The position numbers and the translations under genes are program-made. A stretch of DNA of 64,000 bases, from assembly GCA_951406725.2 (NCBI GenBank), contig OX597836.1:38068001-38132000 (forward strand), given 5' to 3'. Shown in pieces: positions 1-30,900 of this stretch. How positions within the stretch are numbered: the stretch's first letter is position 1; every line of letters begins with the position of its first letter. This stretch comes from Octopus vulgaris (Eukaryota). The notes beneath the pieces are model-generated. The model saw only the letters and a program-made list of their open reading frames with translations. It had not been told where the DNA came from and ran no database searches.

Positions 1-918
1 TGAACGTCTTGAGGTTGTAGCGTTTTCAGTTGTAAATGTTTGCTGTTTTGCACCTCATCTGTTTCCTTAGTGATCTGTTTACACAGCTGTGCAAGCTGCG
101 ATTCTTGTTTACCTGGTTGATATTTTTGTAAATTCTTTATTGTGTGTTTGAATTTCTCTAGTGTTTAATATCAATGCTCTTTGTTTTCTGTACATTTGAT
201 TTGATATCTGCTGATGCAGTGAAATGGAGTATGAGTTGTTTTGGTGTTATTCATTGAATCTAACAGAGCGATAATTGACTTTAAACAATAATTTTCATCG
301 CCATGATTGTGATGTCACGTGTGTGTATATGCAGCAATGAATGCATGTAGAAACAATTGCGTAGTTCTGAAGTATTCCTGTTTGTCGTTTACATGGACAC
401 AGTGTGTGAATTGTCTGAAAGGACAGAAAAAGTGTGAAAATATGGTGAGTTAATTCACAAGAAACATGATGGAGAAAAAGAAATACTTATGAATAAATGC
501 TGGTTTAATGAGCCATCTGATATATGCTCCACGTGAGACAATTTAAATGATAAGTATGTCGTGAAAGTTATTGAAATTTAAGCATTGTGCTGTGTTTTAA
601 CAAGCGGCATTACTTTTTGCGCTTGGATATTTACAGTTTTTCGTGTATTTGAAAGATTATGCTTGATTACGACATTGTAAAAGAATAATGAAAGTTGTTT
701 CTGGTGTTTTCGATATTGTCGATGTTACGTAGGTTTGGTTTTTTATAAATCTGTTGTGTTTTTTGCTGAAATTTCTATGGAATATTGTTTTAGTGAAATT
801 AAGTTGTTTTATATAGAAAATTGATTGTCACTATGTATGTAAGAGCAGAATAATAATTATCGGAATGTAGGAACTGACGATTAATTTGAAATTCCTCTTG
901 CCATTTTGCACTTTTCAG

Positions 919-957
919 TAAAGTCCACAGAAACGATTGTCGATCGAAAGCCACCCG
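919..957 (+). CDS. 39-nt linker micro-exon of unit A, (V)KSTETIVDRKPP(G); first of 16 copies
   Basis: cttttcAG|taaagtcc...ccacccg|GTaaga, phase 1-1. Other copies start at 2764, 4610, 6456, 8302, 10148, 11994, 13840, 15686, 17540, 19386, 21240, 23087, 24932, 26779, 28625. Confidence 0.88.
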
Positions 958-3900
958 GTAAGACATTTCGAACGTATTGATTTTGGTTTTGTTACCTAGT
1001 GTAAAAGAAGGCAGGGCCCGTGTAGAAATGTAATTACAATTACTAAAGGGAATGAGACCTAATTAAAGGAATGTATTTGTTAGTGGTCTTTAGCTTGTGC
1101 GATTAATGTTTATAGGTGTATAGGTGTTGATGTTCAATGAACCACTATATTGAATTATTATGTATGCGTCAGTGTTAATTGATGGCTGCCTCCTTTTTGT
1201 TTAGGTCGTTGCAATACTGCTGAATCAGACATTGTGTTCGTTCTGGATTCTTCAACTAGCGTTACTGATGCAAACTTCAAGAAAATATTAGCTTTCATGA
1301 AAGATTTTCTGTCGGATGCTAGTATTGACTCGGGTAATGTTCGAGTGGGGGCAGTGATTTATAGCACTGATGTAGAGGTGCAGTTTCATTTGAATCGCTA
1401 CAGTTCCAAGCGTGATATCCTCGATGCTGTTGACAACATTGCCTATGTGTATGGAAGCACAAATACATATGGAGGTCTGCACACAGCCAGAACACAGATG
1501 TTCACTGCAGAAAATGGTGACAGAGCCGGTGTTCCTAACATCATTTTCCTCATAACTGATGGCGTTTCCAACGTCAATGCTTTGCAAACGATACCAGAAG
1601 CGGAGGCTATTCGTGCAGAAAACATCCATATTTACGCTATAGGTATAGGCCTTGCAGAAACTACAGAACTCGACAAAATTGCATCATCTCCAGCAAGCGC
1701 TAACAGTTTCACTGTGGAAGATTTTAATGAGCTTCAAGGCTTAAAACACACGATATTTGAATCTTACTGTCCCGGTACGTATATCTCGAAGAATATTACA
1801 CCTGTCATCGTCCTCGTCGAAGTTGTCGTCGTTCCTTTGAATGGGGTGAACGTCTTGAGGTTGTAGCGTTTTCAGTTGTAAATGTTTGCTGTTTTGCACC
1901 TCATCTGTTTCCTTAGTGATCTGTTTACACAGCTGTGCAAGCTGCGATTCTTGTTTACCTGGTTGATATTTTTGTAAATTCTTTATTGTGTGTTTGAATT
2001 TCTCTAGTGTTTAATATCAATGCTCTTTGTTTTCTGTACATTTGATTTGATATCTGCTGATGCAGTGAAATGGAGTATGAGTTGTTTTGGTGTTATTCAT
2101 TGAATCTAACAGAGCGATAATTGACTTTAAACAATAATTTTCATCGCCATGATTGTGATGTCACGTGTGTGTATATGCAGCAATGAATGCATGTAGAAAC
2201 AATTGCGTAGTTCTGAAGTATTCCTGTTTGTCGTTTACATGGACACAGTGTGTGAATTGTCTGAAAGGACAGAAAAAGTGTGAAAATATGGTGAGTTAAT
2301 TCACAAGAAACATGATGGAAAAAGAAATACTTATGAATAAATGCTGGTTTAATGAGCCATCTGATATATGCTCCACGTGAGACAATTTAAATGATAAGTA
2401 TGTCGTGAAAGTTATTGAAATTTAAGCATTGTGCTGTGTTTTGACAAGCGGCATTACTTTTTGCGCTTGGATATTTATAGTTTTTCGTGTATTTGAAAGA
2501 TTATGCTTGATTACGACATTGTAAAAGAATAATGAAAGTTGTTTCTGGTGTTTTCGATATTGTCGATGTTACGTAGGTTTGGTTTTTTATAAATCTGTTG
2601 TGTTTTTTTGCTGAAATTTCTATGGAATATTGTTTTAGTGAAATTAAGTTGTTTTATATAGAAAATTGATTGTCACTATGTATGTATGAGCAGAATAATA
2701 ATTATCGGAATGTAGGAACTGACGATTAATTTGAAATTCCTCTTGCCATTTTGCACTTTTCAGTAAAGTCCACAGAAACGATTGTCGATCGAAAGCCACC
2801 CGGTAAGACATTTCGAACGTATTGATTTTGGTTTTGTTACCTAGTGTAAAAGAAGGCAGGGCCCGTGTAGAAATGTAATTACAATTACTAAAGGGAATGA
2901 GACCTAATTAAAGGAATGTATTTGTTAGTGGTCTTTAGCTTGTGCGATTAATGTTTATAGGTGTATAGGTGTTGATGTTCAATGAACCACTATATTGAAT
3001 TATTATGTATGCGTCAGTGTTAATTGATGGCTGCCTCCTTTTTGTTTAGGTCGTTGCAATACTGCTGAATCAGACATTGTGTTCGTTCTGGATTCTTCAA
3101 CTAGCGTTACTGATGCAAACTTCAAGAAAATATTAGCTTTCATGAAAGATTTTCTGTCGGATGCTAGTATTGACTCGGGTAATGTTCGAGTGGGGGCAGT
3201 GATTTATAGCACTGATGTAGAGGTGCAGTTTCATTTGAATCGCTACAGTTCCAAGCGTGATATCCTCGATGCTGTTGACAACATTGCCTATGTGTATGGA
3301 AGCACAAATACATATGGAGGTCTGCACACAGCCAGAACACAGATGTTCACTGCAGAAAATGGTGACAGAGCCGGTGTTCCTAACATCATTTTCCTCATAA
3401 CTGATGGCGTTTCCAACGTCAATGCTTTGCAAACGATACCAGAAGCGGAGGCTATTCGTGCAGAAAACATCCATATTTACGCTATAGGTATAGGCCTTGC
3501 AGAAACTACAGAACTCGACAAAATTGCATCATCTCCAGCAAGCGCTAACAGTTTCACTGTGGAAGATTTTAATGAGCTTCAAGGCTTAAAACACACGATA
3601 TTTGAATCTTACTGTCCCGGTACGTATATCTCGAAGAATATTACACCTGTCATCGTCCTCGTCGAAGTTGTCGTCGTTCCTTTGAATGGGGTGAACGTCT
3701 TGAGGTTGTAGCGTTTTCAGTTGTAAATGTTTGCTGTTTTGCACCTCATCTGTTTCCTTAGTGATCTGTTTACACAGCTGTGCAAGCTGCGATTCTTGTT
3801 TACCTGGTTGATATTTTTGTAAATTCTTTATTGTGTGTTTGAATTTCTCTAGTGTTTAATATCAATGCTCTTTGTTTTCTGTACATTTGATTTGATATCT

Positions 3901-6900
3901 GCTGATGCAGTGAAATGGAGTATGAGTTGTTTTGGTGTTATTCATTGAATCTAACAGAGCGATAATTGACTTTAAACAATAATTTTCATCGCCATGATTG
4001 TGATGTCACGTGTGTGTATATGCAGCAATGAATGCATGTAGAAACAATTGCGTAGTTCTGAAGTATTCCTGTTTGTCGTTTACATGGACACAGTGTGTGA
4101 ATTGTCTGAAAGGACAGAAAAAGTGTGAAAATATGGTGAGTTAATTCACAAGAAACATGATGGGAAAAAGAAATACTTATGAATAAATGCTGGTTTAATG
4201 AGCAATCTGATATATGCTCCACGTGAGACAATTTAAATGATAAGTATGTCGTGAAAGTTATTGAAATTTAAGCATTGTGCTGTGTTTTGACAAGCGGCAT
4301 TACTTTTTGCGCTTGGATATTTATAGTTTTTCGTGTATTTGAAAGATTATGCTTGATTACGACATTGTAAAAGAATAATGAAAGTTGTTTCTGGTGTTTT
4401 CGATATTGTCGATGTTACGTAGGTTTGGTTTTTTATAAATCTGTTGTGTTTTTTTGCTGAAATTTCTATGGAATATTGTTTTAGTGAAATTAAGTTGTTT
4501 TATATAGAAAATTGATTGTCACTATGTATGTATGAGCAGAATAATAATTATCGGAATGTAGGAACTGACGATTAATTTGAAATTCCTCTTGCCATTTTGC
4601 ACTTTTCAGTAAAGTCCACAGAAACGATTGTCGATCGAAAGCCACCCGGTAAGACATTTCGAACGTATTGATTTTGGTTTTGTTACCTAGTGTAAAAGAA
4701 GGCAGGGCCCGTGTAGAAATGTAATTACAATTACTAAAGGGAATGAGACCTAATTAAAGGAATGTATTTGTTAGTGGTCTTTAGCTTGTGCGATTAATGT
4801 TTATAGGTGTATAGGTGTTGATGTTCAATGAACCACTATATTGAATTATTATGTATGCGTCAGTGTTAATTGATGGCTGCCTCCTTTTTGTTTAGGTCGT
4901 TGCAATACTGCTGAATCAGACATTGTGTTCGTTCTGGATTCTTCAACTAGCGTTACTGATGCAAACTTCAAGAAAATATTAGCTTTCATGAAAGATTTTC
5001 TGTCGGATGCTAGTATTGACTCGGGTAATGTTCGAGTGGGGGCAGTGATTTATAGCACTGATGTAGAGGTGCAGTTTCATTTGAATCGCTACAGTTCCAA
5101 GCGTGATATCCTCGATGCTGTTGACAACATTGCCTATGTGTATGGAAGCACAAATACATATGGAGGTCTGCACACAGCCAGAACACAGATGTTCACTGCA
5201 GAAAATGGTGACAGAGCCGGTGTTCCTAACATCATTTTCCTCATAACTGATGGCGTTTCCAACGTCAATGCTTTGCAAACGATACCAGAAGCGGAGGCTA
5301 TTCGTGCAGAAAACATCCATATTTACGCTATAGGTATAGGCCTTGCAGAAACTACAGAACTCGACAAAATTGCATCATCTCCAGCAAGCGCTAACAGTTT
5401 CACTGTGGAAGATTTTAATGAGCTTCAAGGCTTAAAACACACGATATTTGAATCTTACTGTCCCGGTACGTATATCTCGAAGAATATTACACCTGTCATC
5501 GTCCTCGTCGAAGTTGTCGTCGTTCCTTTGAATGGGGTGAACGTCTTGAGGTTGTAGCGTTTTCAGTTGTAAATGTTTGCTGTTTTGCACCTCATCTGTT
5601 TCCTTAGTGATCTGTTTACACAGCTGTGCAAGCTGCGATTCTTGTTTACCTGGTTGATATTTTTGTAAATTCTTTATTGTGTGTTTGAATTTCTCTAGTG
5701 TTTAATATCAATGCTCTTTGTTTTCTGTACATTTGATTTGATATCTGCTGATGCAGTGAAATGGAGTATGAGTTGTTTTGGTGTTATTCATTGAATCTAA
5801 CAGAGCGATAATTGACTTTAAACAATAATTTTCATCGCCATGATTGTGATGTCACGTGTGTGTATATGCAGCAATGAATGCATGTAGAAACAATTGCGTA
5901 GTTCTGAAGTATTCCTGTTTGTCGTTTACATGGACACAGTGTGTGAATTGTCTGAAAGGACAGAAAAAGTGTGAAAATATGGTGAGTTAATTCACAAGAA
6001 ACATGATGGGAAAAAGAAATACTTATGAATAAATGCTGGTTTAATGAGCAATCTGATATATGCTCCACGTGAGACAATTTAAATGATAAGTATGTCGTGA
6101 AAGTTATTGAAATTTAAGCATTGTGCTGTGTTTTGACAAGCGGCATTACTTTTTGCGCTTGGATATTTACAGTTTTTCGTGTATTTGAAAGATTATGCTT
6201 GATTACGACATTGTAAAAGAATAATGAAAGTTGTTTCTGGTGTTTTCGATATTGTCGATGTTACGTAGGTTTGGTTTTTTATAAATCTGTTGTGTTTTTT
6301 TGCTGAAATTTCTATGGAATATTGTTTTAGTGAAATTAAGTTGTTTTATATAGAAAATTGATTGTCACTATGTATGTATGAGCAGAATAATAATTATCGG
6401 AATGTAGGAACTGACGATTAATTTGAAATTCCTCTTGCCATTTTGCACTTTTCAGTAAAGTCCACAGAAACGATTGTCGATCGAAAGCCACCCGGTAAGA
6501 CATTTCGAACGTATTGATTTTGGTTTTGTTACCTAGTGTAAAAGAAGGCAGGGCCCGTGTAGAAATGTAATTACAATTACTAAAGGGAATGAGACCTAAT
6601 TAAAGGAATGTATTTGTTAGTGGTCTTTAGCTTGTGCGATTAATGTTTATAGGTGTATAGGTGTTGATGTTCAATGAACCACTATATTGAATTATTATGT
6701 ATGCGTCAGTGTTAATTGATGGCTGCCTCCTTTTTGTTTAGGTCGTTGCAATACTGCTGAATCAGACATTGTGTTCGTTCTGGATTCTTCAACTAGCGTT
6801 ACTGATGCAAACTTCAAGAAAATATTAGCTTTCATGAAAGATTTTCTGTCGGATGCTAGTATTGACTCGGGTAATGTTCGAGTGGGGGCAGTGATTTATA

Positions 6901-9900
6901 GCACTGATGTAGAGGTGCAGTTTCATTTGAATCGCTACAGTTCCAAGCGTGATATCCTCGATGCTGTTGACAACATTGCCTATGTGTATGGAAGCACAAA
7001 TACATATGGAGGTCTGCACACAGCCAGAACACAGATGTTCACTGCAGAAAATGGTGACAGAGCCGGTGTTCCTAACATCATTTTCCTCATAACTGATGGC
7101 GTTTCCAACGTCAATGCTTTGCAAACGATACCAGAAGCGGAGGCTATTCGTGCAGAAAACATCCATATTTACGCTATAGGTATAGGCCTTGCAGAAACTA
7201 CAGAACTCGACAAAATTGCATCATCTCCAGCAAGCGCTAACAGTTTCACTGTGGAAGATTTTAATGAGCTTCAAGGCTTAAAACACACGATATTTGAATC
7301 TTACTGTCCCGGTACGTATATCTCGAAGAATATTACACCTGTCATCGTCCTCGTCGAAGTTGTCGTCGTTCCTTTGAATGGGGTGAACGTCTTGAGGTTG
7401 TAGCGTTTTCAGTTGTAAATGTTTGCTGTTTTGCACCTCATCTGTTTCCTTAGTGATCTGTTTACACAGCTGTGCAAGCTGCGATTCTTGTTTACCTGGT
7501 TGATATTTTTGTAAATTCTTTATTGTGTGTTTGAATTTCTCTAGTGTTTAATATCAATGCTCTTTGTTTTCTGTACATTTGATTTGATATCTGCTGATGC
7601 AGTGAAATGGAGTATGAGTTGTTTTGGTGTTATTCATTGAATCTAACAGAGCGATAATTGACTTTAAACAATAATTTTCATCGCCATGATTGTGATGTCA
7701 CGTGTGTGTATATGCAGCAATGAATGCATGTAGAAACAATTGCGTAGTTCTGAAGTATTCCTGTTTGTCGTTTACATGGACACAGTGTGTGAATTGTCTG
7801 AAAGGACAGAAAAAGTGTGAAAATATGGTGAGTTAATTCACAAGAAACATGATGGGAAAAAGAAATACTTATGAATAAATGCTGGTTTAATGAGCAATCT
7901 GATATATGCTCCACGTGAGACAATTTAAATGATAAGTATGTCGTGAAAGTTATTGAAATTTAAGCATTGTGCTGTGTTTTAACAAGCGGCATTACTTTTT
8001 GCGCTTGGATATTTACAGTTTTTCGTGTATTTGAAAGATTATGCTTGATTACGACATTGTAAAAGAATAATGAAAGTTGTTTCTGGTGTTTTCGATATTG
8101 TCGATGTTACGTAGGTTTGGTTTTTTATAAATCTGTTGTGTTTTTTTGCTGAAATTTCTATGGAATATTGTTTTAGTGAAATTAAGTTGTTTTATATAGA
8201 AAATTGATTGTCACTATGTATGTATGAGCAGAATAATAATTATCGGAATGTAGGAACTGACGATTAATTTGAAATTCCTCTTGCCATTTTGCACTTTTCA
8301 GTAAAGTCCACAGAAACGATTGTCGATCGAAAGCCACCCGGTAAGACATTTCGAACGTATTGATTTTGGTTTTGTTACCTAGTGTAAAAGAAGGCAGGGC
8401 CCGTGTAGAAATGTAATTACAATTACTAAAGGGAATGAGACCTAATTAAAGGAATGTATTTGTTAGTGGTCTTTAGCTTGTGCGATTAATGTTTATAGGT
8501 GTATAGGTGTTGATGTTCAATGAACCACTATATTGAATTATTATGTATGCGTCAGTGTTAATTGATGGCTGCCTCCTTTTTGTTTAGGTCGTTGCAATAC
8601 TGCTGAATCAGACATTGTGTTCGTTCTGGATTCTTCAACTAGCGTTACTGATGCAAACTTCAAGAAAATATTAGCTTTCATGAAAGATTTTCTGTCGGAT
8701 GCTAGTATTGACTCGGGTAATGTTCGAGTGGGGGCAGTGATTTATAGCACTGATGTAGAGGTGCAGTTTCATTTGAATCGCTACAGTTCCAAGCGTGATA
8801 TCCTCGATGCTGTTGACAACATTGCCTATGTGTATGGAAGCACAAATACATATGGAGGTCTGCACACAGCCAGAACACAGATGTTCACTGCAGAAAATGG
8901 TGACAGAGCCGGTGTTCCTAACATCATTTTCCTCATAACTGATGGCGTTTCCAACGTCAATGCTTTGCAAACGATACCAGAAGCGGAGGCTATTCGTGCA
9001 GAAAACATCCATATTTACGCTATAGGTATAGGCCTTGCAGAAACTACAGAACTCGACAAAATTGCATCATCTCCAGCAAGCGCTAACAGTTTCACTGTGG
9101 AAGATTTTAATGAGCTTCAAGGCTTAAAACACACGATATTTGAATCTTACTGTCCCGGTACGTATATCTCGAAGAATATTACACCTGTCATCGTCCTCGT
9201 CGAAGTTGTCGTCGTTCCTTTGAATGGGGTGAACGTCTTGAGGTTGTAGCGTTTTCAGTTGTAAATGTTTGCTGTTTTGCACCTCATCTGTTTCCTTAGT
9301 GATCTGTTTACACAGCTGTGCAAGCTGCGATTCTTGTTTACCTGGTTGATATTTTTGTAAATTCTTTATTGTGTGTTTGAATTTCTCTAGTGTTTAATAT
9401 CAATGCTCTTTGTTTTCTGTACATTTGATTTGATATCTGCTGATGCAGTGAAATGGAGTATGAGTTGTTTTGGTGTTATTCATTGAATCTAACAGAGCGA
9501 TAATTGACTTTAAACAATAATTTTCATCGCCATGATTGTGATGTCACGTGTGTGTATATGCAGCAATGAATGCATGTAGAAACAATTGCGTAGTTCTGAA
9601 GTATTCCTGTTTGTCGTTTACATGGACACAGTGTGTGAATTGTCTGAAAGGACAGAAAAAGTGTGAAAATATGGTGAGTTAATTCACAAGAAACATGATG
9701 GGAAAAAGAAATACTTATGAATAAATGCTGGTTTAATGAGCAATCTGATATATGCTCCACGTGAGACAATTTAAATGATAAGTATGTCGTGAAAGTTATT
9801 GAAATTTAAGCATTGTGCTGTGTTTTGACAAGCGGCATTACTTTTTGCGCTTGGATATTTATAGTTTTTCGTGTATTTGAAAGATTATGCTTGATTACGA

Positions 9901-12900
9901 CATTGTAAAAGAATAATGAAAGTTGTTTCTGGTGTTTTCGATATTGTCGATGTTACGTAGGTTTGGTTTTTTATAAATCTGTTGTGTTTTTTTGCTGAAA
10001 TTTCTATGGAATATTGTTTTAGTGAAATTAAGTTGTTTTATATAGAAAATTGATTGTCACTATGTATGTATGAGCAGAATAATAATTATCGGAATGTAGG
10101 AACTGACGATTAATTTGAAATTCCTCTTGCCATTTTGCACTTTTCAGTAAAGTCCACAGAAACGATTGTCGATCGAAAGCCACCCGGTAAGACATTTCGA
10201 ACGTATTGATTTTGGTTTTGTTACCTAGTGTAAAAGAAGGCAGGGCCCGTGTAGAAATGTAATTACAATTACTAAAGGGAATGAGACCTAATTAAAGGAA
10301 TGTATTTGTTAGTGGTCTTTAGCTTGTGCGATTAATGTTTATAGGTGTATAGGTGTTGATGTTCAATGAACCACTATATTGAATTATTATGTATGCGTCA
10401 GTGTTAATTGATGGCTGCCTCCTTTTTGTTTAGGTCGTTGCAATACTGCTGAATCAGACATTGTGTTCGTTCTGGATTCTTCAACTAGCGTTACTGATGC
10501 AAACTTCAAGAAAATATTAGCTTTCATGAAAGATTTTCTGTCGGATGCTAGTATTGACTCGGGTAATGTTCGAGTGGGGGCAGTGATTTATAGCACTGAT
10601 GTAGAGGTGCAGTTTCATTTGAATCGCTACAGTTCCAAGCGTGATATCCTCGATGCTGTTGACAACATTGCCTATGTGTATGGAAGCACAAATACATATG
10701 GAGGTCTGCACACAGCCAGAACACAGATGTTCACTGCAGAAAATGGTGACAGAGCCGGTGTTCCTAACATCATTTTCCTCATAACTGATGGCGTTTCCAA
10801 CGTCAATGCTTTGCAAACGATACCAGAAGCGGAGGCTATTCGTGCAGAAAACATCCATATTTACGCTATAGGTATAGGCCTTGCAGAAACTACAGAACTC
10901 GACAAAATTGCATCATCTCCAGCAAGCGCTAACAGTTTCACTGTGGAAGATTTTAATGAGCTTCAAGGCTTAAAACACACGATATTTGAATCTTACTGTC
11001 CCGGTACGTATATCTCGAAGAATATTACACCTGTCATCGTCCTCGTCGAAGTTGTCGTCGTTCCTTTGAATGGGGTGAACGTCTTGAGGTTGTAGCGTTT
11101 TCAGTTGTAAATGTTTGCTGTTTTGCACCTCATCTGTTTCCTTAGTGATCTGTTTACACAGCTGTGCAAGCTGCGATTCTTGTTTACCTGGTTGATATTT
11201 TTGTAAATTCTTTATTGTGTGTTTGAATTTCTCTAGTGTTTAATATCAATGCTCTTTGTTTTCTGTACATTTGATTTGATATCTGCTGATGCAGTGAAAT
11301 GGAGTATGAGTTGTTTTGGTGTTATTCATTGAATCTAACAGAGCGATAATTGACTTTAAACAATAATTTTCATCGCCATGATTGTGATGTCACGTGTGTG
11401 TATATGCAGCAATGAATGCATGTAGAAACAATTGCGTAGTTCTGAAGTATTCCTGTTTGTCGTTTACATGGACACAGTGTGTGAATTGTCTGAAAGGACA
11501 GAAAAAGTGTGAAAATATGGTGAGTTAATTCACAAGAAACATGATGGGAAAAAGAAATACTTATGAATAAATGCTGGTTTAATGAGCAATCTGATATATG
11601 CTCCACGTGAGACAATTTAAATGATAAGTATGTCGTGAAAGTTATTGAAATTTAAGCATTGTGCTGTGTTTTGACAAGCGGCATTACTTTTTGCGCTTGG
11701 ATATTTACAGTTTTTCGTGTATTTGAAAGATTATGCTTGATTACGACATTGTAAAAGAATAATGAAAGTTGTTTCTGGTGTTTTCGATATTGTCGATGTT
11801 ACGTAGGTTTGGTTTTTTATAAATCTGTTGTGTTTTTTTGCTGAAATTTCTATGGAATATTGTTTTAGTGAAATTAAGTTGTTTTATATAGAAAATTGAT
11901 TGTCACTATGTATGTATGAGCAGAATAATAATTATCGGAATGTAGGAACTGACGATTAATTTGAAATTCCTCTTGCCATTTTGCACTTTTCAGTAAAGTC
12001 CACAGAAACGATTGTCGATCGAAAGCCACCCGGTAAGACATTTCGAACGTATTGATTTTGGTTTTGTTACCTAGTGTAAAAGAAGGCAGGGCCCGTGTAG
12101 AAATGTAATTACAATTACTAAAGGGAATGAGACCTAATTAAAGGAATGTATTTGTTAGTGGTCTTTAGCTTGTGCGATTAATGTTTATAGGTGTATAGGT
12201 GTTGATGTTCAATGAACCACTATATTGAATTATTATGTATGCGTCAGTGTTAATTGATGGCTGCCTCCTTTTTGTTTAGGTCGTTGCAATACTGCTGAAT
12301 CAGACATTGTGTTCGTTCTGGATTCTTCAACTAGCGTTACTGATGCAAACTTCAAGAAAATATTAGCTTTCATGAAAGATTTTCTGTCGGATGCTAGTAT
12401 TGACTCGGGTAATGTTCGAGTGGGGGCAGTGATTTATAGCACTGATGTAGAGGTGCAGTTTCATTTGAATCGCTACAGTTCCAAGCGTGATATCCTCGAT
12501 GCTGTTGACAACATTGCCTATGTGTATGGAAGCACAAATACATATGGAGGTCTGCACACAGCCAGAACACAGATGTTCACTGCAGAAAATGGTGACAGAG
12601 CCGGTGTTCCTAACATCATTTTCCTCATAACTGATGGCGTTTCCAACGTCAATGCTTTGCAAACGATACCAGAAGCGGAGGCTATTCGTGCAGAAAACAT
12701 CCATATTTACGCTATAGGTATAGGCCTTGCAGAAACTACAGAACTCGACAAAATTGCATCATCTCCAGCAAGCGCTAACAGTTTCACTGTGGAAGATTTT
12801 AATGAGCTTCAAGGCTTAAAACACACGATATTTGAATCTTACTGTCCCGGTACGTATATCTCGAAGAATATTACACCTGTCATCGTCCTCGTCGAAGTTG

Positions 12901-18900: not shown

Positions 18901-21900
18901 GTGAAAATATGGTGAGTTAATTCACAAGAAACATGATGAGAAAAAGAAATACTTATGAATAAATGCTGGTTTAATGAGCCATCTGATATATGCTCCACGT
19001 GAGACAATTTAAATGATAAGTATGTCGTGAAAGTTATTGAAATTTAAGCATTGTGCTGTGTTTTAACAAGCGGCATTACTTTTTGCGCTTGGATATTTAC
19101 AGTTTTTCGTGTATTTGAAAGATTATGCTTGATTACGACATTGTAAAAGAATAATGAAAGTTGTTTCTGGTGTTTTCGATATTGTCGATGTTACGTAGGT
19201 TTGGTTTTTTATAAATCTGTTGTGTTTTTTTGCTGAAATTTCTATGGAATATTGTTTTAGTGAAATTAAGTTGTTTTATATAGAAAATTGATTGTCACTA
19301 TGTATGTATGAGCAGAATAATAATTATCGGAATGTAGGAACTGACGATTAATTTGAAATTCCTCTTGCCATTTTGCACTTTTCAGTAAAGTCCACAGAAA
19401 CGATTGTCGATCGAAAGCCACCCGGTAAGACATTTCGAACGTATTGATTTTGGTTTTGTTACCTAGTGTAAAAGAAGGCAGGGCCCGTGTAGAAATGTAA
19501 TTACAATTACTAAAGGGAATGAGACCTAATTAAAGGAATGTATTTGTTAGTGGTCTTTAGCTTGTGCGATTAATGTTTATAGGTGTATAGGTGTTGATGT
19601 TCAATGAACCACTATATTGAATTATTATGTATGCGTCAGTGTTAATTGATGGCTGCCTCCTTTTTGTTTAGGTCGTTGCAATACTGCTGAATCAGACATT
19701 GTGTTCGTTCTGGATTCTTCAACTAGCGTTACTGATGCAAACTTCAAGAAAATATTAGCTTTCATGAAAGATTTTCTGTCGGATGCTAGTATTGACTCGG
19801 GTAATGTTCGAGTGGGGGCAGTGATTTATAGCACTGATGTAGAGGTGCAGTTTCATTTGAATCGCTACAGTTCCAAGCGTGATATCCTCGATGCTGTTGA
19901 CAACATTGCCTATGTGTATGGAAGCACAAATACATATGGAGGTCTGCACACAGCCAGAACACAGATGTTCACTGCAGAAAATGGTGACAGAGCCGGTGTT
20001 CCTAACATCATTTTCCTCATAACTGATGGCGTTTCCAACGTCAATGCTTTGCAAACGATACCAGAAGCGGAGGCTATTCGTGCAGAAAACATCCATATTT
20101 ACGCTATAGGTATAGGCCTTGCAGAAACTACAGAACTCGACAAAATTGCATCATCTCCAGCAAGCGCTAACAGTTTCACTGTGGAAGATTTTAATGAGCT
20201 TCAAGGCTTAAAACACACGATATTTGAATCTTACTGTCCCGGTACGTATATCTCGAAGAATATTACACCTGTCATCGTCCTCGTCGAAGTTGTCGTCGTT
20301 CCTTTGAATGGGGTGAACGTCTTGAGGTTGTAGCGTTTTCAGTTGTAAATGTTTGCTGTTTTGCACCTCATCTGTTTCCTTAGTGATCTGTTTACACAGC
20401 TGTGCAAGCTGCGATTCTTGTTTACCTGGTTGATATTTTTGTAAATTCTTTATTGTGTGTTTGAATTTCTCTAGTGTTTAATATCAATGCTCTTTGTTTT
20501 CTGTACATTTGATTTGATATCTGCTGATGCAGTGAAATGGAGTATGAGTTGTTTTGGTGTTATTCATTGAATCTAACAGAGCGATAATTGACTTTAAACA
20601 ATAATTTTCATCGCCATGATTGTGATGTCACGTGTGTGTATATGCAGCAATGAATGCATGTAGAAACAATTGCGTAGTTCTGAAGTATTCCTGTTTGTCG
20701 TTTACATGGACACAGTGTGTGAATTGTCTGAAAGGACAGAAAAAGTGTGAAAATATGGTGAGTTAATTCACAAGAAACATGATGGGAAAAAGAAATACTT
20801 ATGAATAAATGCTGGTTTAATGAGCAATCTGATATATGCTCCACGTGAGACAATTTAAATGATAAGTATGTCGTGAAAGTTATTGAAATTTAAGCATTGT
20901 GCTGTGTTTTGACAAGCGGCATTACTTTTTGCGCTTGGATATTTATAGTTTTTCGTGTATTTGAAAGATTATGCTTGATTACGACATTGTAAAAGAATAA
21001 TGAAAGTTGTTTCTGGTGTTTTCGATATTGTCGATGTTACGTAGGTTTGGTTTTTTATAAATCTGTTGTGTTTTTTTGCTGAAATTTCTATGGAATATTG
21101 TTTTAGTGAAATTAAGTTGTTTTATATAGAAAATTGATTGTCACTATGTATGTATGTATGTAAGAGCAGAATAATAATTATCGGAATGTAGGAACTGACG
21201 ATTAATTTGAAATTCCTCTTGCCATTTTGCACTTTTCAGTAAAGTCCACAGAAACGATTGTCGATCGAAAGCCACCCGGTAAGACATTTCGAACGTATTG
21301 ATTTTGGTTTTGTTACCTAGTGTAAAAGAAGGCAGGGCCCGTGTAGAAATGTAATTACAATTACTAAAGGGAATGAGACCTAATTAAAGGAATGTATTTG
21401 TTAGTGGTCTTTAGCTTGTGCGATTAATGTTTATAGGTGTATAGGTGTTGATGTTCAATGAACCACTATATTGAATTATTATGTATGCGTCAGTGTTAAT
21501 TGATGGCTGCCTCCTTTTTGTTTAGGTCGTTGCAATACTGCTGAATCAGACATTGTGTTCGTTCTGGATTCTTCAACTAGCGTTACTGATGCAAACTTCA
21601 AGAAAATATTAGCTTTCATGAAAGATTTTCTGTCGGATGCTAGTATTGACTCGGGTAATGTTCGAGTGGGGGCAGTGATTTATAGCACTGATGTAGAGGT
21701 GCAGTTTCATTTGAATCGCTACAGTTCCAAGCGTGATATCCTCGATGCTGTTGACAACATTGCCTATGTGTATGGAAGCACAAATACATATGGAGGTCTG
21801 CACACAGCCAGAACACAGATGTTCACTGCAGAAAATGGTGACAGAGCCGGTGTTCCTAACATCATTTTCCTCATAACTGATGGCGTTTCCAACGTCAATG

Positions 21901-24900
21901 CTTTGCAAACGATACCAGAAGCGGAGGCTATTCGTGCAGAAAACATCCATATTTACGCTATAGGTATAGGCCTTGCAGAAACTACAGAACTCGACAAGAT
22001 TGCATCATCTCCAGCAAGCGCTAACAGTTTCACTGTGGAAGATTTTAATGAGCTTCAAGGCTTAAAACACACGATATTTGAATCTTACTGTCCCGGTACG
22101 TATATCTCGAAGAATATTACACCTGTCATCGTCCTCGTCGAAGTTGTCGTCGTTCCTTTGAATGGGGTGAACGTCTTGAGGTTGTAGCGTTTTCAGTTGT
22201 AAATGTTTGCTGTTTTGCACCTCATCTGTTTCCTTAGTGATCTGTTTACACAGCTGTGCAAGCTGCGATTCTTGTTTACCTGGTTGATATTTTTGTAAAT
22301 TCTTTATTGTGTGTTTGAATTTCTCTAGTGTTTAATATCAATGCTCTTTGTTTTCTGTACATTTGATTTGATATCTGCTGATGCAGTGAAATGGAGTATG
22401 AGTTGTTTTGGTGTTATTCATTGAATCTAACAGAGCGATAATTGACTTTAAACAATAATTTTCATTGCCATGATTGTGATGTCACGTGTGTGTATATGCA
22501 GCAATGAATGCATGTAGAAACAATTGCGTAGTTCTGAAGTATTCCTGTTTGTCGTTTACATGGACACAGTGTGTGAATTGTCTGAAAGGACAGAAAAAGT
22601 GTGAAAATATGGTGAGTTAATTCACAAGAAACATGATGGGAAAAAGAAATACTTATGAATAAATGCTGGTTTAATGAGCAATCTGATATATGCTCCACGT
22701 GAGACAATTTAAATGATAAGTATGTCGGTGAAAGTTATTGAAATTTAAGCATTGTGCTGTGTTTTGACAAGCGGCATTACTTTTTGCGCTTGGATATTTA
22801 TAGTTTTTCGTGTATTTGAAAGATTATGCTTGATTACGACATTGTAAAAGAATAATGAAAGTTGTTTCTGGTGTTTTCGATATTGTCGATGTTACGTAGG
22901 TTTGGTTTTTTATAAATCTGTTGTGTTTTTTTGCTGAAATTTCTATGGAATATTGTTTTAGTGAAATTAAGTTGTTTTATATAGAAAATTGATTGTCACT
23001 ATGTATGTATGAGCAGAATAATAATTATCGGAATGTAGGAACTGACGATTAATTTGAAATTCCTCTTGCCATTTTGCACTTTTCAGTAAAGTCCACAGAA
23101 ACGATTGTCGATCGAAAGCCACCCGGTAAGACATTTCGAACGTATTGATTTTGGTTTTGTTACCTAGTGTAAAAGAAGGCAGGGCCCGTGTAGAAATGTA
23201 ATTACAATTACTAAAGGGAATGAGACCTAATTAAAGGAATGTATTTGTTAGTGGTCTTTAGCTTGTGCGATTAATGTTTATAGGTGTATAGGTGTTGATG
23301 TTCAATGAACCACTATATTGAATTATTATGTATGCGTCAGTGTTAATTGATGGCTGCCTCCTTTTTGTTTAGGTCGTTGCAATACTGCTGAATCAGACAT
23401 TGTGTTCGTTCTGGATTCTTCAACTAGCGTTACTGATGCAAACTTCAAGAAAATATTAGCTTTCATGAAAGATTTTCTGTCGGATGCTAGTATTGACTCG
23501 GGTAATGTTCGAGTGGGGGCAGTGATTTATAGCACTGATGTAGAGGTGCAGTTTCATTTGAATCGCTACAGTTCCAAGCGTGATATCCTCGATGCTGTTG
23601 ACAACATTGCCTATGTGTATGGAAGCACAAATACATATGGAGGTCTGCACACAGCCAGAACACAGATGTTCACTGCAGAAAATGGTGACAGAGCCGGTGT
23701 TCCTAACATCATTTTCCTCATAACTGATGGCGTTTCCAACGTCAATGCTTTGCAAACGATACCAGAAGCGGAGGCTATTCGTGCAGAAAACATCCATATT
23801 TACGCTATAGGTATAGGCCTTGCAGAAACTACAGAACTCGACAAAATTGCATCATCTCCAGCAAGCGCTAACAGTTTCACTGTGGAAGATTTTAATGAGC
23901 TTCAAGGCTTAAAACACACGATATTTGAATCTTACTGTCCCGGTACGTATATCTCGAAGAATATTACACCTGTCATCGTCCTCGTCGAAGTTGTCGTCGT
24001 TCCTTTGAATGGGGTGAACGTCTTGAGGTTGTAGCGTTTTCAGTTGTAAATGTTTGCTGTTTTGCACCTCATCTGTTTCCTTAGTGATCTGTTTACACAG
24101 CTGTGCAAGCTGCGATTCTTGTTTACCTGGTTGATATTTTTGTAAATTCTTTATTGTGTGTTTGAATTTCTCTAGTGTTTAATATCAATGCTCTTTGTTT
24201 TCTGTACATTTGATTTGATATCTGCTGATGCAGTGAAATGGAGTATGAGTTGTTTTGGTGTTATTCATTGAATCTAACAGAGCGATAATTGACTTTAAAC
24301 AATAATTTTCATCGCCATGATTGTGATGTCACGTGTGTGTATATGCAGCAATGAATGCATGTAGAAACAATTGCGTAGTTCTGAAGTATTCCTGTTTGTC
24401 GTTTACATGGACACAGTGTGTGAATTGTCTGAAAGGACAGAAAAAGTGTGAAAATATGGTGAGTTAATTCACAAGAAACATGATGGAAAAAAGAAATACT
24501 TATGAATAAATGCTGGTTTAATGAGCAATCTGATATATGCTCCACGTGAGACAATTTAAATGATAAGTATGTCGTGAAAGTTATTGAAATTTAAGCATTG
24601 TGCTGTGTTTTGACAAGCGGCATTACTTTTTGCGCTTGGATATTTACAGTTTTTCGTGTATTTGAAAGATTATGCTTGATTACGACATTGTAAAAGAATA
24701 ATGAAAGTTGTTTCTGGTGTTTTGATATTGTCGATGTTACGTAGGTTTGGTTTTTTATAAATCTGTTGTGTTTTTTTGCTGAAATTTCTATGGAATATTG
24801 TTTTAGTGAAATTAAGTTGTTTTATATAGAAAATTGATTGTCACTATGTATGTATGAGCAGAATAATAATTATCGGAATGTAGGAACTGACGATTAATTT

Positions 24901-27900
24901 GAAATTCCTCTTGCCATTTTGCACTTTTCAGTAAAGTCCACAGAAACGATTGTCGATCGAAAGCCACCCGGTAAGACATTTCGAACGTATTGATTTTGGT
25001 TTTGTTACCTAGTGTAAAAGAAGGCAGGGCCCGTGTAGAAATGTAATTACAATTACTAAAGGGAATGAGACCTAATTAAAGGAATGTATTTGTTAGTGGT
25101 CTTTAGCTTGTGCGATTAATGTTTATAGGTGTATAGGTGTTGATGTTCAATGAACCACTATATTGAATTATTATGTATGCGTCAGTGTTAATTGATGGCT
25201 GCCTCCTTTTTGTTTAGGTCGTTGCAATACTGCTGAATCAGACATTGTGTTCGTTCTGGATTCTTCAACTAGCGTTACTGATGCAAACTTCAAGAAAATA
25301 TTAGCTTTCATGAAAGATTTTCTGTCGGATGCTAGTATTGACTCGGGTAATGTTCGAGTGGGGGCAGTGATTTATAGCACTGATGTAGAGGTGCAGTTTC
25401 ATTTGAATCGCTACAGTTCCAAGCGTGATATCCTCGATGCTGTTGACAACATTGCCTATGTGTATGGAAGCACAAATACATATGGAGGTCTGCACACAGC
25501 CAGAACACAGATGTTCACTGCAGAAAATGGTGACAGAGCCGGTGTTCCTAACATCATTTTCCTCATAACTGATGGCGTTTCCAACGTCAATGCTTTGCAA
25601 ACGATACCAGAAGCGGAGGCTATTCGTGCAGAAAACATCCATATTTACGCTATAGGTATAGGCCTTGCAGAAACTACAGAACTCGACAAGATTGCATCAT
25701 CTCCAGCAAGCGCTAACAGTTTCACTGTGGAAGATTTTAATGAGCTTCAAGGCTTAAAACACACGATATTTGAATCTTACTGTCCCGGTACGTATATCTC
25801 GAAGAATATTACACCTGTCATCGTCCTCGTCGAAGTTGTCGTCGTTCCTTTGAATGGGGTGAACGTCTTGAGGTTGTAGCGTTTTCAGTTGTAAATGTTT
25901 GCTGTTTTGCACCTCATCTGTTTCCTTAGTGATCTGTTTACACAGCTGTGCAAGCTGCGATTCTTGTTTACCTGGTTGATATTTTTGTAAATTCTTTATT
26001 GTGTGTTTGAATTTCTCTAGTGTTTAATATCAATGCTCTTTGTTTTCTGTACATTTGATTTGATATCTGCTGATGCAGTGAAATGGAGTATGAGTTGTTT
26101 TGGTGTTATTCATTGAATCTAACAGAGCGATAATTGACTTTAAACAATAATTTTCATCGCCATGATTGTGATGTCACGTGTGTGTATATGCAGCAATGAA
26201 TGCATGTAGAAACAATTGCGTAGTTCTGAAGTATTCCTGTTTGTCGTTTACATGGACACAGTGTGTGAATTGTCTGAAAGGACAGAAAAAGTGTGAAAAT
26301 ATGGTGAGTTAATTCACAAGAAACATGATGGGAAAAAGAAATACTTATGAATAAATGCTGGTTTAATGAGCAATCTGATATATGCTCCACGTGAGACAAT
26401 TTAAATGATAAGTATGTCGGTGAAAGTTATTGAAATTTAAGCATTGTGCTGTGTTTTAACAAGCGGCATTACTTTTTGCGCTTGGATATTTACAGTTTTT
26501 CGTGTATTTGAAAGATTATGCTTGATTACGACATTGTAAAAGAATAATGAAAGTTGTTTCTGGTGTTTTCGATATTGTCGATGTTACGTAGGTTTGGTTT
26601 TTTATAAATCTGTTGTGTTTTTTTGCTGAAATTTCTATGGAATATTGTTTTAGTGAAATTAAGTTGTTTTATATAGAAAATTGATTGTCACTATGTATGT
26701 ATGAGCAGAATAATAATTATCGGAATGTAGGAACTGACGATTAATTTGAAATTCCTCTTGCCATTTTGCACTTTTCAGTAAAGTCCACAGAAACGATTGT
26801 CGATCGAAAGCCACCCGGTAAGACATTTCGAACGTATTGATTTTGGTTTTGTTACCTAGTGTAAAAGAAGGCAGGGCCCGTGTAGAAATATAATTACAAT
26901 TACTAAAGGGAATGAGACCTAATTAAAGGAATGTATTTGTTAGTGGTCTTTAGCTTGTGCGATTAATGTTTATAGGTGTATAGGTGTTGATGTTCAATGA
27001 ACCACTATATTGAATTATTATGTATGCGTCAGTGTTAATTGATGGCTGCCTCCTTTTTGTTTAGGTCGTTGCAATACTGCTGAATCAGACATTGTGTTCG
27101 TTCTGGATTCTTCAACTAGCGTTACTGATGCAAACTTCAAGAAAATATTAGCTTTCATGAAAGATTTTCTGTCGGATGCTAGTATTGACTCGGGTAATGT
27201 TCGAGTGGGGGCAGTGATTTATAGCACTGATGTAGAGGTGCAGTTTCATTTGAATCGCTACAGTTCCAAGCGTGATATCCTCGATGCTGTTGACAACATT
27301 GCCTATGTGTATGGAAGCACAAATACATATGGAGGTCTGCACACAGCCAGAACACAGATGTTCACTGCAGAAAATGGTGACAGAGCCGGTGTTCCTAACA
27401 TCATTTTCCTCATAACTGATGGCGTTTCCAACGTCAATGCTTTGCAAACGATACCAGAAGCGGAGGCTATTCGTGCAGAAAACATCCATATTTACGCTAT
27501 AGGTATAGGCCTTGCAGAAACTACAGAACTCGACAAGATTGCATCATCTCCAGCAAGCGCTAACAGTTTCACTGTGGAAGATTTTAATGAGCTTCAAGGC
27601 TTAAAACACACGATATTTGAATCTTACTGTCCCGGTACGTATATCTCGAAGAATATTACACCTGTCATCGTCCTCGTCGAAGTTGTCGTCGTTCCTTTGA
27701 ATGGGGTGAACGTCTTGAGGTTGTAGCGTTTTCAGTTGTAAATGTTTGCTGTTTTGCACCTCATCTGTTTCCTTAGTGATCTGTTTACACAGCTGTGCAA
27801 GCTGCGATTCTTGTTTACCTGGTTGATATTTTTGTAAATTCTTTATTGTGTGTTTGAATTTCTCTAGTGTTTAATATCAATGCTCTTTGTTTTCTGTACA

Positions 27901-30900
27901 TTTGATTTGATATCTGCTGATGCAGTGAAATGGAGTATGAGTTGTTTTGGTGTTATTCATTGAATCTAACAGAGCGATAATTGACTTTAAACAATAATTT
28001 TCATCGCCATGATTGTGATGTCACGTGTGTGTATATGCAGCAATGAATGCATGTAGAAACAATTGCGTAGTTCTGAAGTATTCCTGTTTGTCGTTTACAT
28101 GGACACAGTGTGTGAATTGTCTGAAAGGACAGAAAAAGTGTGAAAATATGGTGAGTTAATTCACAAGAAACATGATGGGAAAAAGAAATACTTATGAATA
28201 AATGCTGGTTTAATGAGCAATCTGATATATGCTCCACGTGAGACAATTTAAATGATAAGTATGTCGGTGAAAGTTATTGAAATTTAAGCATTGTGCTGTG
28301 TTTTAACAAGCGGCATTACTTTTGCGCTTGGATATTTACAGTTTTTCGTGTATTTGAAAGATTATGCTTGATTACGACATTGTAAAAGAATAATGAAAGT
28401 TGTTTCTGGTGTTTTCGATATTGTCGATGTTACGTAGGTTTGGTTTTTTATAAATCTGTTGTGTTTTTTTGCTGAAATTTCTATGGAATATTGTTTTAGT
28501 GAAATTAAGTTGTTTTATATAGAAAATTGATTGTCACTATGTATGTATGAGCAGAATAATAATTATCGGAATGTAGGAACTGACGATTAATTTGAAATTC
28601 CTCTTGCCATTTTGCACTTTTCAGTAAAGTCCACAGAAACGATTGTCGATCGAAAGCCACCCGGTAAGACATTTCGAACGTATTGATTTTGGTTTTGTTA
28701 CCTAGTGTAAAAGAAGGCAGGGCCCGTGTAGAAATGTAATTACAATTACTAAAGGGAATGAGACCTAATTAAAGGAATGTATTTGTTAGTGGTCTTTAGC
28801 TTGTGCGATTAATGTTTATAGGTGTATAGGTGTTGATGTTCAATGAACCACTATATTGAATTATTATGTATGCGTCAGTGTTAATTGATGGCTGCCTCCT
28901 TTTTGTTTAGGTCGTTGCAATACTGCTGAATCAGACATTGTGTTCGTTCTGGATTCTTCAACTAGCGTTACTGATGCAAACTTCAAGAAAATATTAGCTT
29001 TCATGAAAGATTTTCTGTCGGATGCTAGTATTGACTCGGGTAATGTTCGAGTGGGGGCAGTGATTTATAGCACTGATGTAGAGGTGCAGTTTCATTTGAA
29101 TCGCTACAGTTCCAAGCGTGATATCCTCGATGCTGTTGACAACATTGCCTATGTGTATGGAAGCACAAATACATATGGAGGTCTGCACACAGCCAGAACA
29201 CAGATGTTCACTGCAGAAAATGGTGACAGAGCCGGTGTTCCTAACATCATTTTCCTCATAACTGATGGCGTTTCCAACGTCAATGCTTTGCAAACGATAC
29301 CAGAAGCGGAGGCTATTCGTGCAGAAAACATCCATATTTACGCTATAGGTATAGGCCTTGCAGAAACTACAGAACTCGACAAAATTGCATCATCTCCAGC
29401 AAGCGCTAACAGTTTCACTGTGGAAGATTTTAATGAGCTTCAAGGCTTAAAACACACGATATTTGAATCTTACTGTCCCGGTACGTATATCTCGAAGAAT
29501 ATTACACCTGTCATCGTCCTCGTCGAAGTTGTCGTCGTTCCTTTGAATGGGGTGAACGTCTTGAGGTTGTAGCGTTTTCAGTTGTAAATGTTTGCTGTTT
29601 TGCACCTCATCTGTTTCCTTAGTGATCTGTTTACACAGCTGTGCAAGCTGCGATTCTTGTTTACCTGGTTGATATTTTTGTAAATTCTTTATTGTGTGTT
29701 TGAATTTCTCTAGTGTTTAATATCAATGCTCTTTGTTTTCTGTACATTTGATTTGATATCTGCTGATGCAGTGAAATGGAGTATGAGTTGTTTTGGTGTT
29801 ATTCATTGAATCTAACAGAGCGATAATTGACTTTAAACAATAATTTTCATCGCCATGATTGTGAATTCACGTGTGTGTATATGCAGCAATGAATGCATGT
29901 AGAAACAATTGCGTATTTCTGAAGTATTCCTGTTTGTCGTTTACATGGACACAGTGTGTGAATTGTCTGAAAGGACAGAAAAAGTGTGAAAATATGGTGA
30001 GTTAATTCACAAGAAACATGATGAGAAAAAGAAATACTTATGAATAAATGCTGGTTTAATGAGCAATCTGATATATGCTCCACGTGAGACAATTTAAATG
30101 ATAAGTATGTCGGTGAAAGTTATTGAAATTTAAGTATTGTGCTGTGTTTTAAGAAGCGGCATTACTTTTTGAACCTGGATATTTAAAGTTTTTCGTGTAT
30201 TTGAAAGATTATGCTTGATTACAACATTGTAAAAGAATAATGAATGTTGTTTCTGGTGTTTTCGACATCGTTGATGTTACGTAGGTTCGGTTTTTTTTAT
30301 AAATATCTGTTCGTTGACAGAGCGGCCAACCGGCTTACGCGCCAATGGCACATAAAAGGCATTATTCGAGTGTGATCGTTATCAGCGTTGCCTTCCTGGC
30401 CCTTGTGCCACCTCTTAGTATGGTGCTTAGAGCACCATCCGAGCCTGATTGTTGCCGGAGTAGCTAACTGGTTTCCGTGTTGGTGGCATATAAATGGCAC
30501 CATTTGAGATTGATTGTTACCAGCATCACCTTACTGGCACCTCTGCCGGTTGCATTTATAAAATGCTTTTTGCAAGGTCGTTGCCAGTACCGTTTGACTG
30601 GCACATAAAAGCACCTACTATATTCATGGAGTGGTTGGCGTTAGGAAGGGCATCAAGCTGTAGAAACTCTGCCAGATCAAGATTGGTGCCTGGTGCAGCC
30701 CTCCGGTTCGCCAGCCCTCAGTCAAATCGTCCAACCTATGCTAGCATGGAAAGCGGATGTTAAATGATGATGATGATGATCCATCGTTTTGTCAATGGTC
30801 CCGGAATATGTTGTTCATGAACAGCGGCAGTAATTTTCTTCTGCTGGATACACATAATTGATTGGTTAAAATTACCCAAATACGACGACTTTAATTTCTA

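Follow-up and report, generated by a model that had tools for sequence, protein, structure and literature searches.

The question raised by this locus is whether the length of a protein may be tuned by the number of its repeat units, by exon skipping, or by both. The stretch concerned (hereafter the window) comprises 64,000 nucleotides of Octopus vulgaris (contig OX597836.1, positions 38,068,001 to 38,132,000, forward strand) and carries tandem arrays of exons encoding VWA domains. Arrays were mapped by self-blastn of the 64-kb window and exons were located by blastn with five exon templates, which gave 59 full-length exon models and three partial remnants. The whole is best explained, quite probably, by a giant gene whose VWA array evolves in concert and whose alleles probably differ in copy number. 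The original prediction had taken the symmetry of the exons as its starting point; this symmetry is real but ordinary.

Exon phase and reading frame

A tandem period of 1,846 bp extends from the left edge of the window to ~30,311, with long self-matches of 99.2-99.7% (sub-array A), and two more arrays with periods of ~3.15 and ~3.22 kb (sub-arrays B and C) occupy the region from ~36,250 to the right edge. Sub-array A extends past the left end of the window, its unit 17 is cut at ~30311, and sub-array C runs on past the right end. TRF was blind to the arrays due to its period limit of 500. Each A unit consists of a 39-nt linker exon and a 570-nt VWA exon. The original prediction had placed four exon sizes (39, 45, 57 and 570 nt) in 919..29480; only the 39- and 570-nt exons are present there (16 each), and those of 45 and 57 nt were found at 35,261-63,779 instead.

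Among the full-length models, 58/59 are open in phase 1, namely 16 of 39 nt and 16 of 570 nt in sub-array A, and ten of 45 nt, eight of 57 nt and eight of 570 nt in sub-arrays B and C. For all 58, the length is a multiple of three, both ends are in phase 1 (class 1-1), the acceptor is AG, the donor is GT and the last base is G. Since every exon ends in G, the junction codons are GNN and never a stop. The prediction that every exon is symmetric is thus borne out for these 58 and not for a 57-nt copy at 36556 (TGA, GAG acceptor), an orphan VWA exon and the remnants. Spliced in order, the 58 exons encode 5,070 AA (~553 kDa) with 0 stops, and random sampling of 2,000 exon subsets likewise gave 0 stops; exon skipping would indeed preserve the frame, as predicted. 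Independent support for phase 1 comes from the 57-nt exon, in which phases 0 and 2 are closed and no other phase is left. In the 39-nt exon just phase 0 is closed, and in the 45-nt exon no phase is. In all 24 full VWA exons the domain borders coincide with phase-1 introns, as in a class 1-1 module. The Octopus sinensis RefSeq model P0198 equals a type-C unit over 129 residues, across the joins of the 57-, 45- and 570-nt exons, and is frameshifted thereafter. The coding total per unit is 609 nt for A (203 AA, 22.06 kDa) and 672 nt for B and C (224 AA, 24.6 kDa), both in frame; the predicted step of ~22 kDa fits the A units and is too small for the B/C units.

The 32 exons in 919-29480 are 16 copies of one unit and represent two intron positions. 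At phase-1 frequencies of 0.30-0.36, the joint chance of two phase-1 positions is 0.09-0.13, before allowing for the phase-1 bias known at the borders of extracellular domains. The all-phase-1 pattern thus says little beyond chance. VWA is a class 1-1 module in other genes as well. Modules of extracellular proteins in animals are, as a rule, of class 1-1, and glycine-rich linkers favour phase 1 (PMC8001218; VWA had 0 matches in the passages searched). In the sponge aggregation-factor genes, 154/155 introns are in phase 1 and VWA domains lie in single exons (PMC5400394). The symmetry can be put down to descent by exon shuffling and tandem duplication, and no selection for skipping is needed.

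Exon symmetry as a requirement for in-frame unequal crossover was rejected: an exchange in register keeps the frame when the coding total of the unit is a multiple of three, whatever the exon phases, and the KIV-2 exons of LPA have 160 and 182 nt (PMC4378929). Units may be gained or lost in frame, as the original prediction had it, owing to their totals of 609 and 672 nt; symmetry matters only for exon skipping.

Sequence exchange and related domains

All 16 type-A VWA exons encode one identical protein, with a single synonymous variant among the copies. The A units differ by a mean of 2.36 substitutions per ~1,770 nt (~0.13%) and form 12 distinct sequences, with one set of four identical units plus an identical pair; variants are common to non-adjacent units. 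In the four-gamete test, 4/6 informative site pairs show all four gametes, and sites 585, 670 and 705, within 120 bp, give a short-range, conversion-like signal. Heterozygosity of O. vulgaris is 1.22% (PMC10700109). The divergence of the A units is about a tenth of this value; unless they were flattened by polishing, the units would seem to turn over more quickly than alleles coalesce. Only 1/15 variant events in A is exonic (P=0.02). The non-adjacent A units 10 and 12 (16542-18395 and 20242-22095) have the same 8-bp intronic insertion, which can serve as a marker of unit order in reads.

The five complete C units differ by 1.1%, and four gametes were found in 71/231 site pairs. Variable sites amount to 5/672 in exons versus 71/2,548 in introns (P=0.0009), and indels to 0 versus 5. 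The introns of B and C share 75-78% identity, whereas their VWA exons differ at 4/75 four-fold sites (17.6 expected, P=2.5e-5), with 0/39 in the 5' half. One polymorphism is shared between B and C, and the orphan exon is a mosaic of both. Synonymous sites between A and B are saturated, hence four-fold sites in VWA exons can vary. Judged from these sequences, exon-confined gene conversion between B and C is likely, by which the domains would stay alike while the introns diverge; a constraint related to splicing or a higher mutation rate of introns may contribute to the exon identity. The signatures of exchange are observed, and from them we infer concerted evolution as the mechanism acting on the three sub-arrays. 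In a comparison of 40787-41401 (B) with 51576-52190 (C), stretches of 204, 82 and 97 nt are free of mismatches, and B/C identity reaches ~27 nt into the intron on the acceptor side and ~18 nt on the donor side.

The A, B and C domains match PF00092 with 154-160 bits (cut-off 23.8). In all three types the metal ion-dependent adhesion site (MIDAS) motif DxSxS...T...D was found as DSSTS at 14, GSTNT at 83 and I/LTDG at 116; its T and D positions follow the consensus, and the metal site is a predicted one. The type-A exon has the full motif, and the domain of each unit has a Cys near each end. An AlphaFold2 prediction for the type-A domain from its sequence alone (mean predicted local distance difference test score 42) was uninformative on the putative disulfide between the flanking Cys. 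On sequence similarity, the domain belongs to a VWA subfamily of molluscs. Among solved structures, its nearest relatives are collagen VI alpha-3 (PDB 9han) and mussel proximal thread matrix protein 1 (PTMP1; PDB 4cn8).

Giant VWA(-EGF) gene models exist in other molluscs, namely P0222 in Argonauta, P0223 in Batillaria, P0224 in Mizuhopecten, P0226 in Pomacea and P0229-P0233 in Mya, and are labelled 'collagen alpha-3(VI)-like' or uncharacterized. They share the VWA subfamily and the Pro/Thr linkers, and their central block is often homogenised. Most domains of the central block are 50-63% identical to type A. The gastropod and bivalve models differ in having VWA-EGF tails and, in some cases, PKD-like modules, none of which was seen in the octopus window; orthology with models outside the cephalopods is presumed. 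The Argonauta hians model P0222 contains 25 A-type VWA domains, of which 300/300 pairs are ≥ 90% identical (98-100%), compared to 79-80% identity with type A of the window. Its 13-AA linker is present at 11/24 junctions and 13 junctions are direct joins (period 190 or 203). Thus, the repeats of Octopus A and Argonauta are closer within than between species, as in VERL.

Thirteen long homologues were compared (11 of 35 protein-search matches plus 2 of the 150 phmmer matches listed; the comparison omitted three Mya isoforms, one Dreissena model and all rows from outside the molluscs). Domain pairs of ≥ 90% occur in 6/13, i.e., in Argonauta, Batillaria, Mizuhopecten, Pomacea and two others. Models of Sepia, Elysia and Mytilus galloprovincialis reach 96-97%, an O. 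bimaculoides paralogue only 60%. In a midpoint-rooted tree of 85 domains ≥ 45% identical to type A, from which exact duplicates had been removed, repeats cluster by species, with A beside Argonauta (100/97) and B/C beside Sepia (100/99). Since A and B/C group with different genera, the two domain types are old. A phmmer search against 50% representatives gave no long protein > 55% identical to type B among the 150 matches listed. In P0224, the homogenised unit consists of two unlike VWA domains (period ~430 AA). The related protein P0025 (2044 AA) resembles DMBT1 in layout, with eight VWA domains (six of them 95-98% identical between neighbours), linkers rich in Thr and an SRCR domain at the C-terminus.

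Membership in collagen VI was rejected in view of the missing triple helix. No Gly-X-Y triple helix was found in window open reading frames (ORFs) ≥ 120 AA, the gene ends lying outside the window. PF01391 appears in 0/15 mollusc homologue rows and is listed for vertebrate collagens. The 'collagen' labels of the mollusc models are therefore misleading, as no triple-helix family is listed for them. The A-domain array of collagen VI alpha-3 and PTMP1 resemble the octopus array as tandem VWA domains of the extracellular matrix and differ from it in that their domains are divergent and collagen VI has a triple helix. The shell matrix proteins Pif/BMSP combine 1-4 VWA domains with chitin-binding and laminin-G domains (PMC11291548), versus at least 24 VWA domains and no other recognised domain in the window, where the gene ends are not visible.

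Proposed gene and alternative explanations

The window would cover the central part of a giant gene. Its product is probably secreted, would not be a collagen and would consist of VWA domains, at least 24 in number, with short linkers rich in Pro and Thr between them. A class 1-1 VWA exon inherited from exon shuffling would have been copied into units by tandem duplication, of which the duplication itself is evident. Exchange between neighbours may keep each sub-array near-uniform, and exon-confined conversion may couple B and C. Unequal crossover would add or remove whole units in frame, resulting in allelic size steps of 22 kDa (A) or 24.6 kDa (B/C). A single transcript would span A, B and C, and in most transcripts the VWA exons are probably all retained, with at most the weak 57-nt linker exon as a cassette. 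By analogy to the family, the many identical MIDAS sites most likely serve multivalent binding or cross-linking that depends on metal, in matrix or mucus, whereby copy number would set avidity and length. The flanking Cys pair and the family context suggest secretion. A skin-mucus proteome of octopus lists VWFA, 'collagen alpha-3 and 4' and cartilage-matrix proteins (PMC11431876), a possible link to this gene.

The locus has the features of a coding variable number tandem repeat (VNTR), i.e., tandem, near-identical, intron-containing, in-frame units with sequence exchange among them. It works like the known coding VNTRs and belongs to none of their families; a probable coding VNTR, it is likely closer to DMBT1 or VERL than to LPA, and allelic variation in copy number is likely by analogy to these systems. 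Indirect support for a coding VNTR comes from the divergence of ~0.13% among the A units, from their four-gamete results and from domain numbers that vary widely among mollusc gene models. Human DMBT1 (SALSA), the best-studied analogue, also has tandem extracellular domains with Ser/Thr-rich spacers; its multiallelic 7-21 SRCR copies set protein size and binding, and splicing is minor (PMC9038570). The differences are that the domain is SRCR, not VWA, and that the polymorphism was measured in DMBT1 and is only presumed in octopus. The repeat of abalone VERL is ZP-N. This molluscan gene has 22 repeats, most of them homogenised to > 95% by conversion or unequal crossover (PMC2704960); it is unlike the octopus gene in encoding an egg-coat sperm receptor from another repeat, the octopus gene not being tied to a sperm-egg role. 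The likeness to LPA KIV-2 given in the original prediction is partial: near-identical intron-containing units in one frame are common to both (1 to > 40 copies of 5.5 kb in LPA), whereas the LPA domain is a kringle and its exons are singly asymmetric, so that the octopus locus is no LPA member and LPA no precedent for skipping (PMC4378929). Schistosoma SmPoMuc has exon-plus-intron repeats of ~1 kb, up to ~20 of them, with concerted evolution and repeat numbers varying between individuals (PMC2576457), yet its repeat is a tiny mucin repeat in a multigene family and not a folded domain of 190 AA. Sponge aggregation factors likewise have phase-1 introns and single-exon VWA, and frame-safe splicing was already proposed there, but they contain Calx-beta and Wreath domains with low inter-domain identity and no homogenised array (PMC5400394).

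Several points weigh against a single giant array gene with alleles of differing length. The data cover the genomic sequence of one haplotype, which bears on the allelic variation in particular. The gene start with the signal peptide, the C-terminus and the tissue lie outside the window data, the joining of A, B and C is an assumed link, and the binding function is based on family analogy. The 39-nt exon is a predicted one, and the Argonauta model omits its linker at 13/24 junctions. Considering substitutions alone, 1/9 in A is exonic (P=0.15, not significant). Polishing of long reads can flatten or mis-count near-identical units and would thereby deflate the value of 0.13%. Finally, no pair of ≥ 90% was found in 7/13 homologues (Ruditapes, Potamilus, Pecten, two Mya isoforms, Sinanodonta and Dreissena), so that not every such gene is homogenised.

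A bolder reading goes beyond the array gene proposed here and is tentative, indeed rather doubtful. According to it, an undescribed giant VWA gene would exist mollusc-wide, with a central block re-homogenised independently in many lineages; in Octopus it would form a hypervariable coding macrosatellite of two ancient types coupled by exon-confined conversion, an invertebrate counterpart of DMBT1 under balancing selection. If so, the avidity of the array of identical MIDAS sites in mucus, matrix or microbe recognition would be adjusted through allele length and perhaps also through the skipping of units.

That A and B/C are two adjoining genes, or that the array is in part pseudogenic and decaying, is unlikely. 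In its favour, A and B are set apart by 5.8 kb of spacer, which contains repeats, deletion scars and an exon with a stop. A and B share 66% protein identity and group with domains of different species, and the Argonauta model has only A-type domains. Against this reading, no start or terminal exon was recognised among the 34 spacer ORFs ≥ 55 AA, and the donor of the last A exon and the acceptor of the next 45-nt exon are intact, on the same strand and in the same phase. Further points against it are the 24/24 open full VWA exons and the depletion of variants in exons.

Skipping of whole VWA units, with symmetry kept for the purpose of a size ladder within one individual, is distinctly unlikely. 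It would be helped by the frame safety of any exon subset, and related mollusc genes carry RefSeq isoform labels X11, X14 and X26. Four Mya isoforms lack a clean internal 279-560 AA compared to the longest one, but the longest and the shortest both have 15 VWA domains and, hence, the skipped parts are other modules. A weak AAG acceptor is confined to the 57-nt exon (8/8 copies), whereas the splice sites of the VWA, 39- and 45-nt exons are of consensus type (YAG acceptor, GT donor). In DMBT1, 4/5 full-length transcripts matched the genomic repeat number (PMC9038570), and the passages searched of PMC3220584 hold nothing on splicing. Descent explains the symmetry without selection for skipping (PMC8001218, PMC5400394). 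The predicted splice-derived ladder has no direct support.

It is quite improbable that the copy number is effectively fixed, either by conversion without length change or by tight selection on length. Conversion-like signals are strong and can be short-range, and B/C identity is exon-confined, which would suit conversion alone; differing unit types and sizes, deletion scars and a truncated unit nevertheless indicate repeated length change, and the likewise homogenised VERL is polymorphic in length between individuals (~20 versus 22 units; PMC2704960). The Argonauta count of 25 is near the 24 found here, but both counts are truncated and the similarity means little.

An artefact of assembly or polishing as the source of the high copy number or near identity is highly improbable: four A units and a further pair are identical, and the short, frameshifted O. 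sinensis annotation indicates that assemblies handle the region badly, but there are 12 distinct sequences in 16 A units with substitutions and the 8-bp insertion common to non-adjacent ones, variants avoid exons, unlike random error, and the independent Argonauta assembly has the same kind of array, although the exact count may still be wrong.

For the array gene preferred here, public annotation offers short, broken, collagen-labelled models in place of potentially > 550 kDa of near-identical adhesion domains, i.e., a hidden gene. If copy number varies between octopuses, a model cephalopod would offer a length polymorphism that can be measured, and the split of 6/13 homogenised and 7/13 non-homogenised homologues offers a comparative system for why some lineages keep their repeats identical. 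No paper on this locus was found in the literature on octopus or mollusc VWA arrays or on homologue locus tags, mostly outside subscription journals.

Feature coordinates, spacer and damaged copies

Coordinates of all features are collected in the table. The spacer from ~32967 onwards is the decayed intron of a lost B/C-type unit. Two copies of the 57-nt exon have decayed, the only exon type to do so twice; the second, if spliced in, would truncate the protein at residue 3269. The orphan VWA exon arose by an out-of-register deletion fused to type-B intron DNA with 2-nt microhomology (junction region 45560-45750). Use of one nearby CAG would give 161 nt and a frameshift, use of another 174 nt in frame. 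These remnants and out-of-register scars show that some past length changes were not in register. The 59-nt VWA piece is perhaps a templated insertion made during repair.

Table. Exons, units and remnants in the window.
Feature	Position	Strand	Method or remark
Sub-array A, 16 complete units of 1,845-1,854 bp	1..30311	+	self-blastn, unit comparison
First 39-nt linker exon, 13 AA, phase 1-1	919..957	+	blastn; CAG acceptor, GTAAGA donor in 16/16
Remaining 39-nt exons (starts)	2764, 4610, 6456, 8302, 10148, 11994, 13840, 15686	+	blastn
Further 39-nt exons (starts)	17540, 19386, 21240, 23087, 24932, 26779, 28625	+	blastn
First type-A VWA exon, 570 nt, phase 1-1	1205..1774	+	blastn; PF00092, E 1.2e-46
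Remaining type-A VWA exons (starts)	3050, 4896, 6742, 8588, 10434, 12280, 14126, 15972	+	blastn
Further type-A VWA exons (starts)	17826, 19672, 21526, 23373, 25218, 27065, 28911	+	blastn
Type-A VWA exon 16 (last)	28911..29480	+	blastn
Long spacer, probably one intron	29481..35260	+	truncated A unit 17, interspersed repeats, decayed B/C-type intron
Degenerate 57-nt exon remnant	34891..34947	+	blastn; in-frame stops, no donor
Intact 45-nt linker exon	35261..35305	+	blastn; VWA exon of its unit gone
59-nt piece of type-B VWA exon, in intron	35889..35947	+	exon positions 306-364, 100% identical to B1
Damaged 57-nt exon	36556..36612	+	blastn, translation; in-frame TGA, GAG acceptor
Sub-array B, three ~3.15-kb units	36936..44531	+	blastn
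Sub-array B 45-nt exons (starts)	36936, 40092, 43241	+	
Sub-array B 57-nt exons (starts)	39690, 42848	+	
Sub-array B VWA exons	37658-38227, 40814-41383, 43962-44531	+	
Orphan VWA exon, 3' part (last 162 nt)	45589..45750	+	donor intact, B/C mosaic
Sub-array C, five complete 3.20-3.22-kb units	47238..61827	+	blastn; joins match O. sinensis P0198
Sub-array C 57-nt exons (starts)	47238, 50458, 53676, 56890, 60112	+	
Sub-array C 45-nt exons (starts)	47636, 50856, 54074, 57288, 60511	+	
Sub-array C VWA exons (starts)	48383, 51603, 54821, 58035, 61258	+	
C unit 6, partial: 57-nt (63337-63393) and 45-nt (63735-63779) exons	63337..63779	+	blastn

For a further exon in the A-unit intron 5466-6455, one candidate with a pyrimidine-rich acceptor and a strong donor was found, which is closed by stops. 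ORFs on the minus strand opposite the VWA exons (131 AA) were interpreted as shadow frames of the coding strand. No tRNA genes were found in the window. The acceptors of the 57-nt exons (e.g., at 47238) read AAG followed by GAG three bases on, a possible in-frame tandem acceptor, and the orphan VWA fragment has a Pro-to-Leu change near its end. On the minus strand, 33600-34420 contains a degenerate transposase remnant (Pfam HTH_48, E=0.021, below cut-off), the motifs of which resemble mariner. GC-richer interspersed elements, presumably octopus short interspersed nuclear elements (SINEs), lie at 30312-30780 and 35485-35835, the first of which truncates A unit 17. Short tandem repeats with periods of 16 and 30 at 32689-32848 are probably part of a mobile element.

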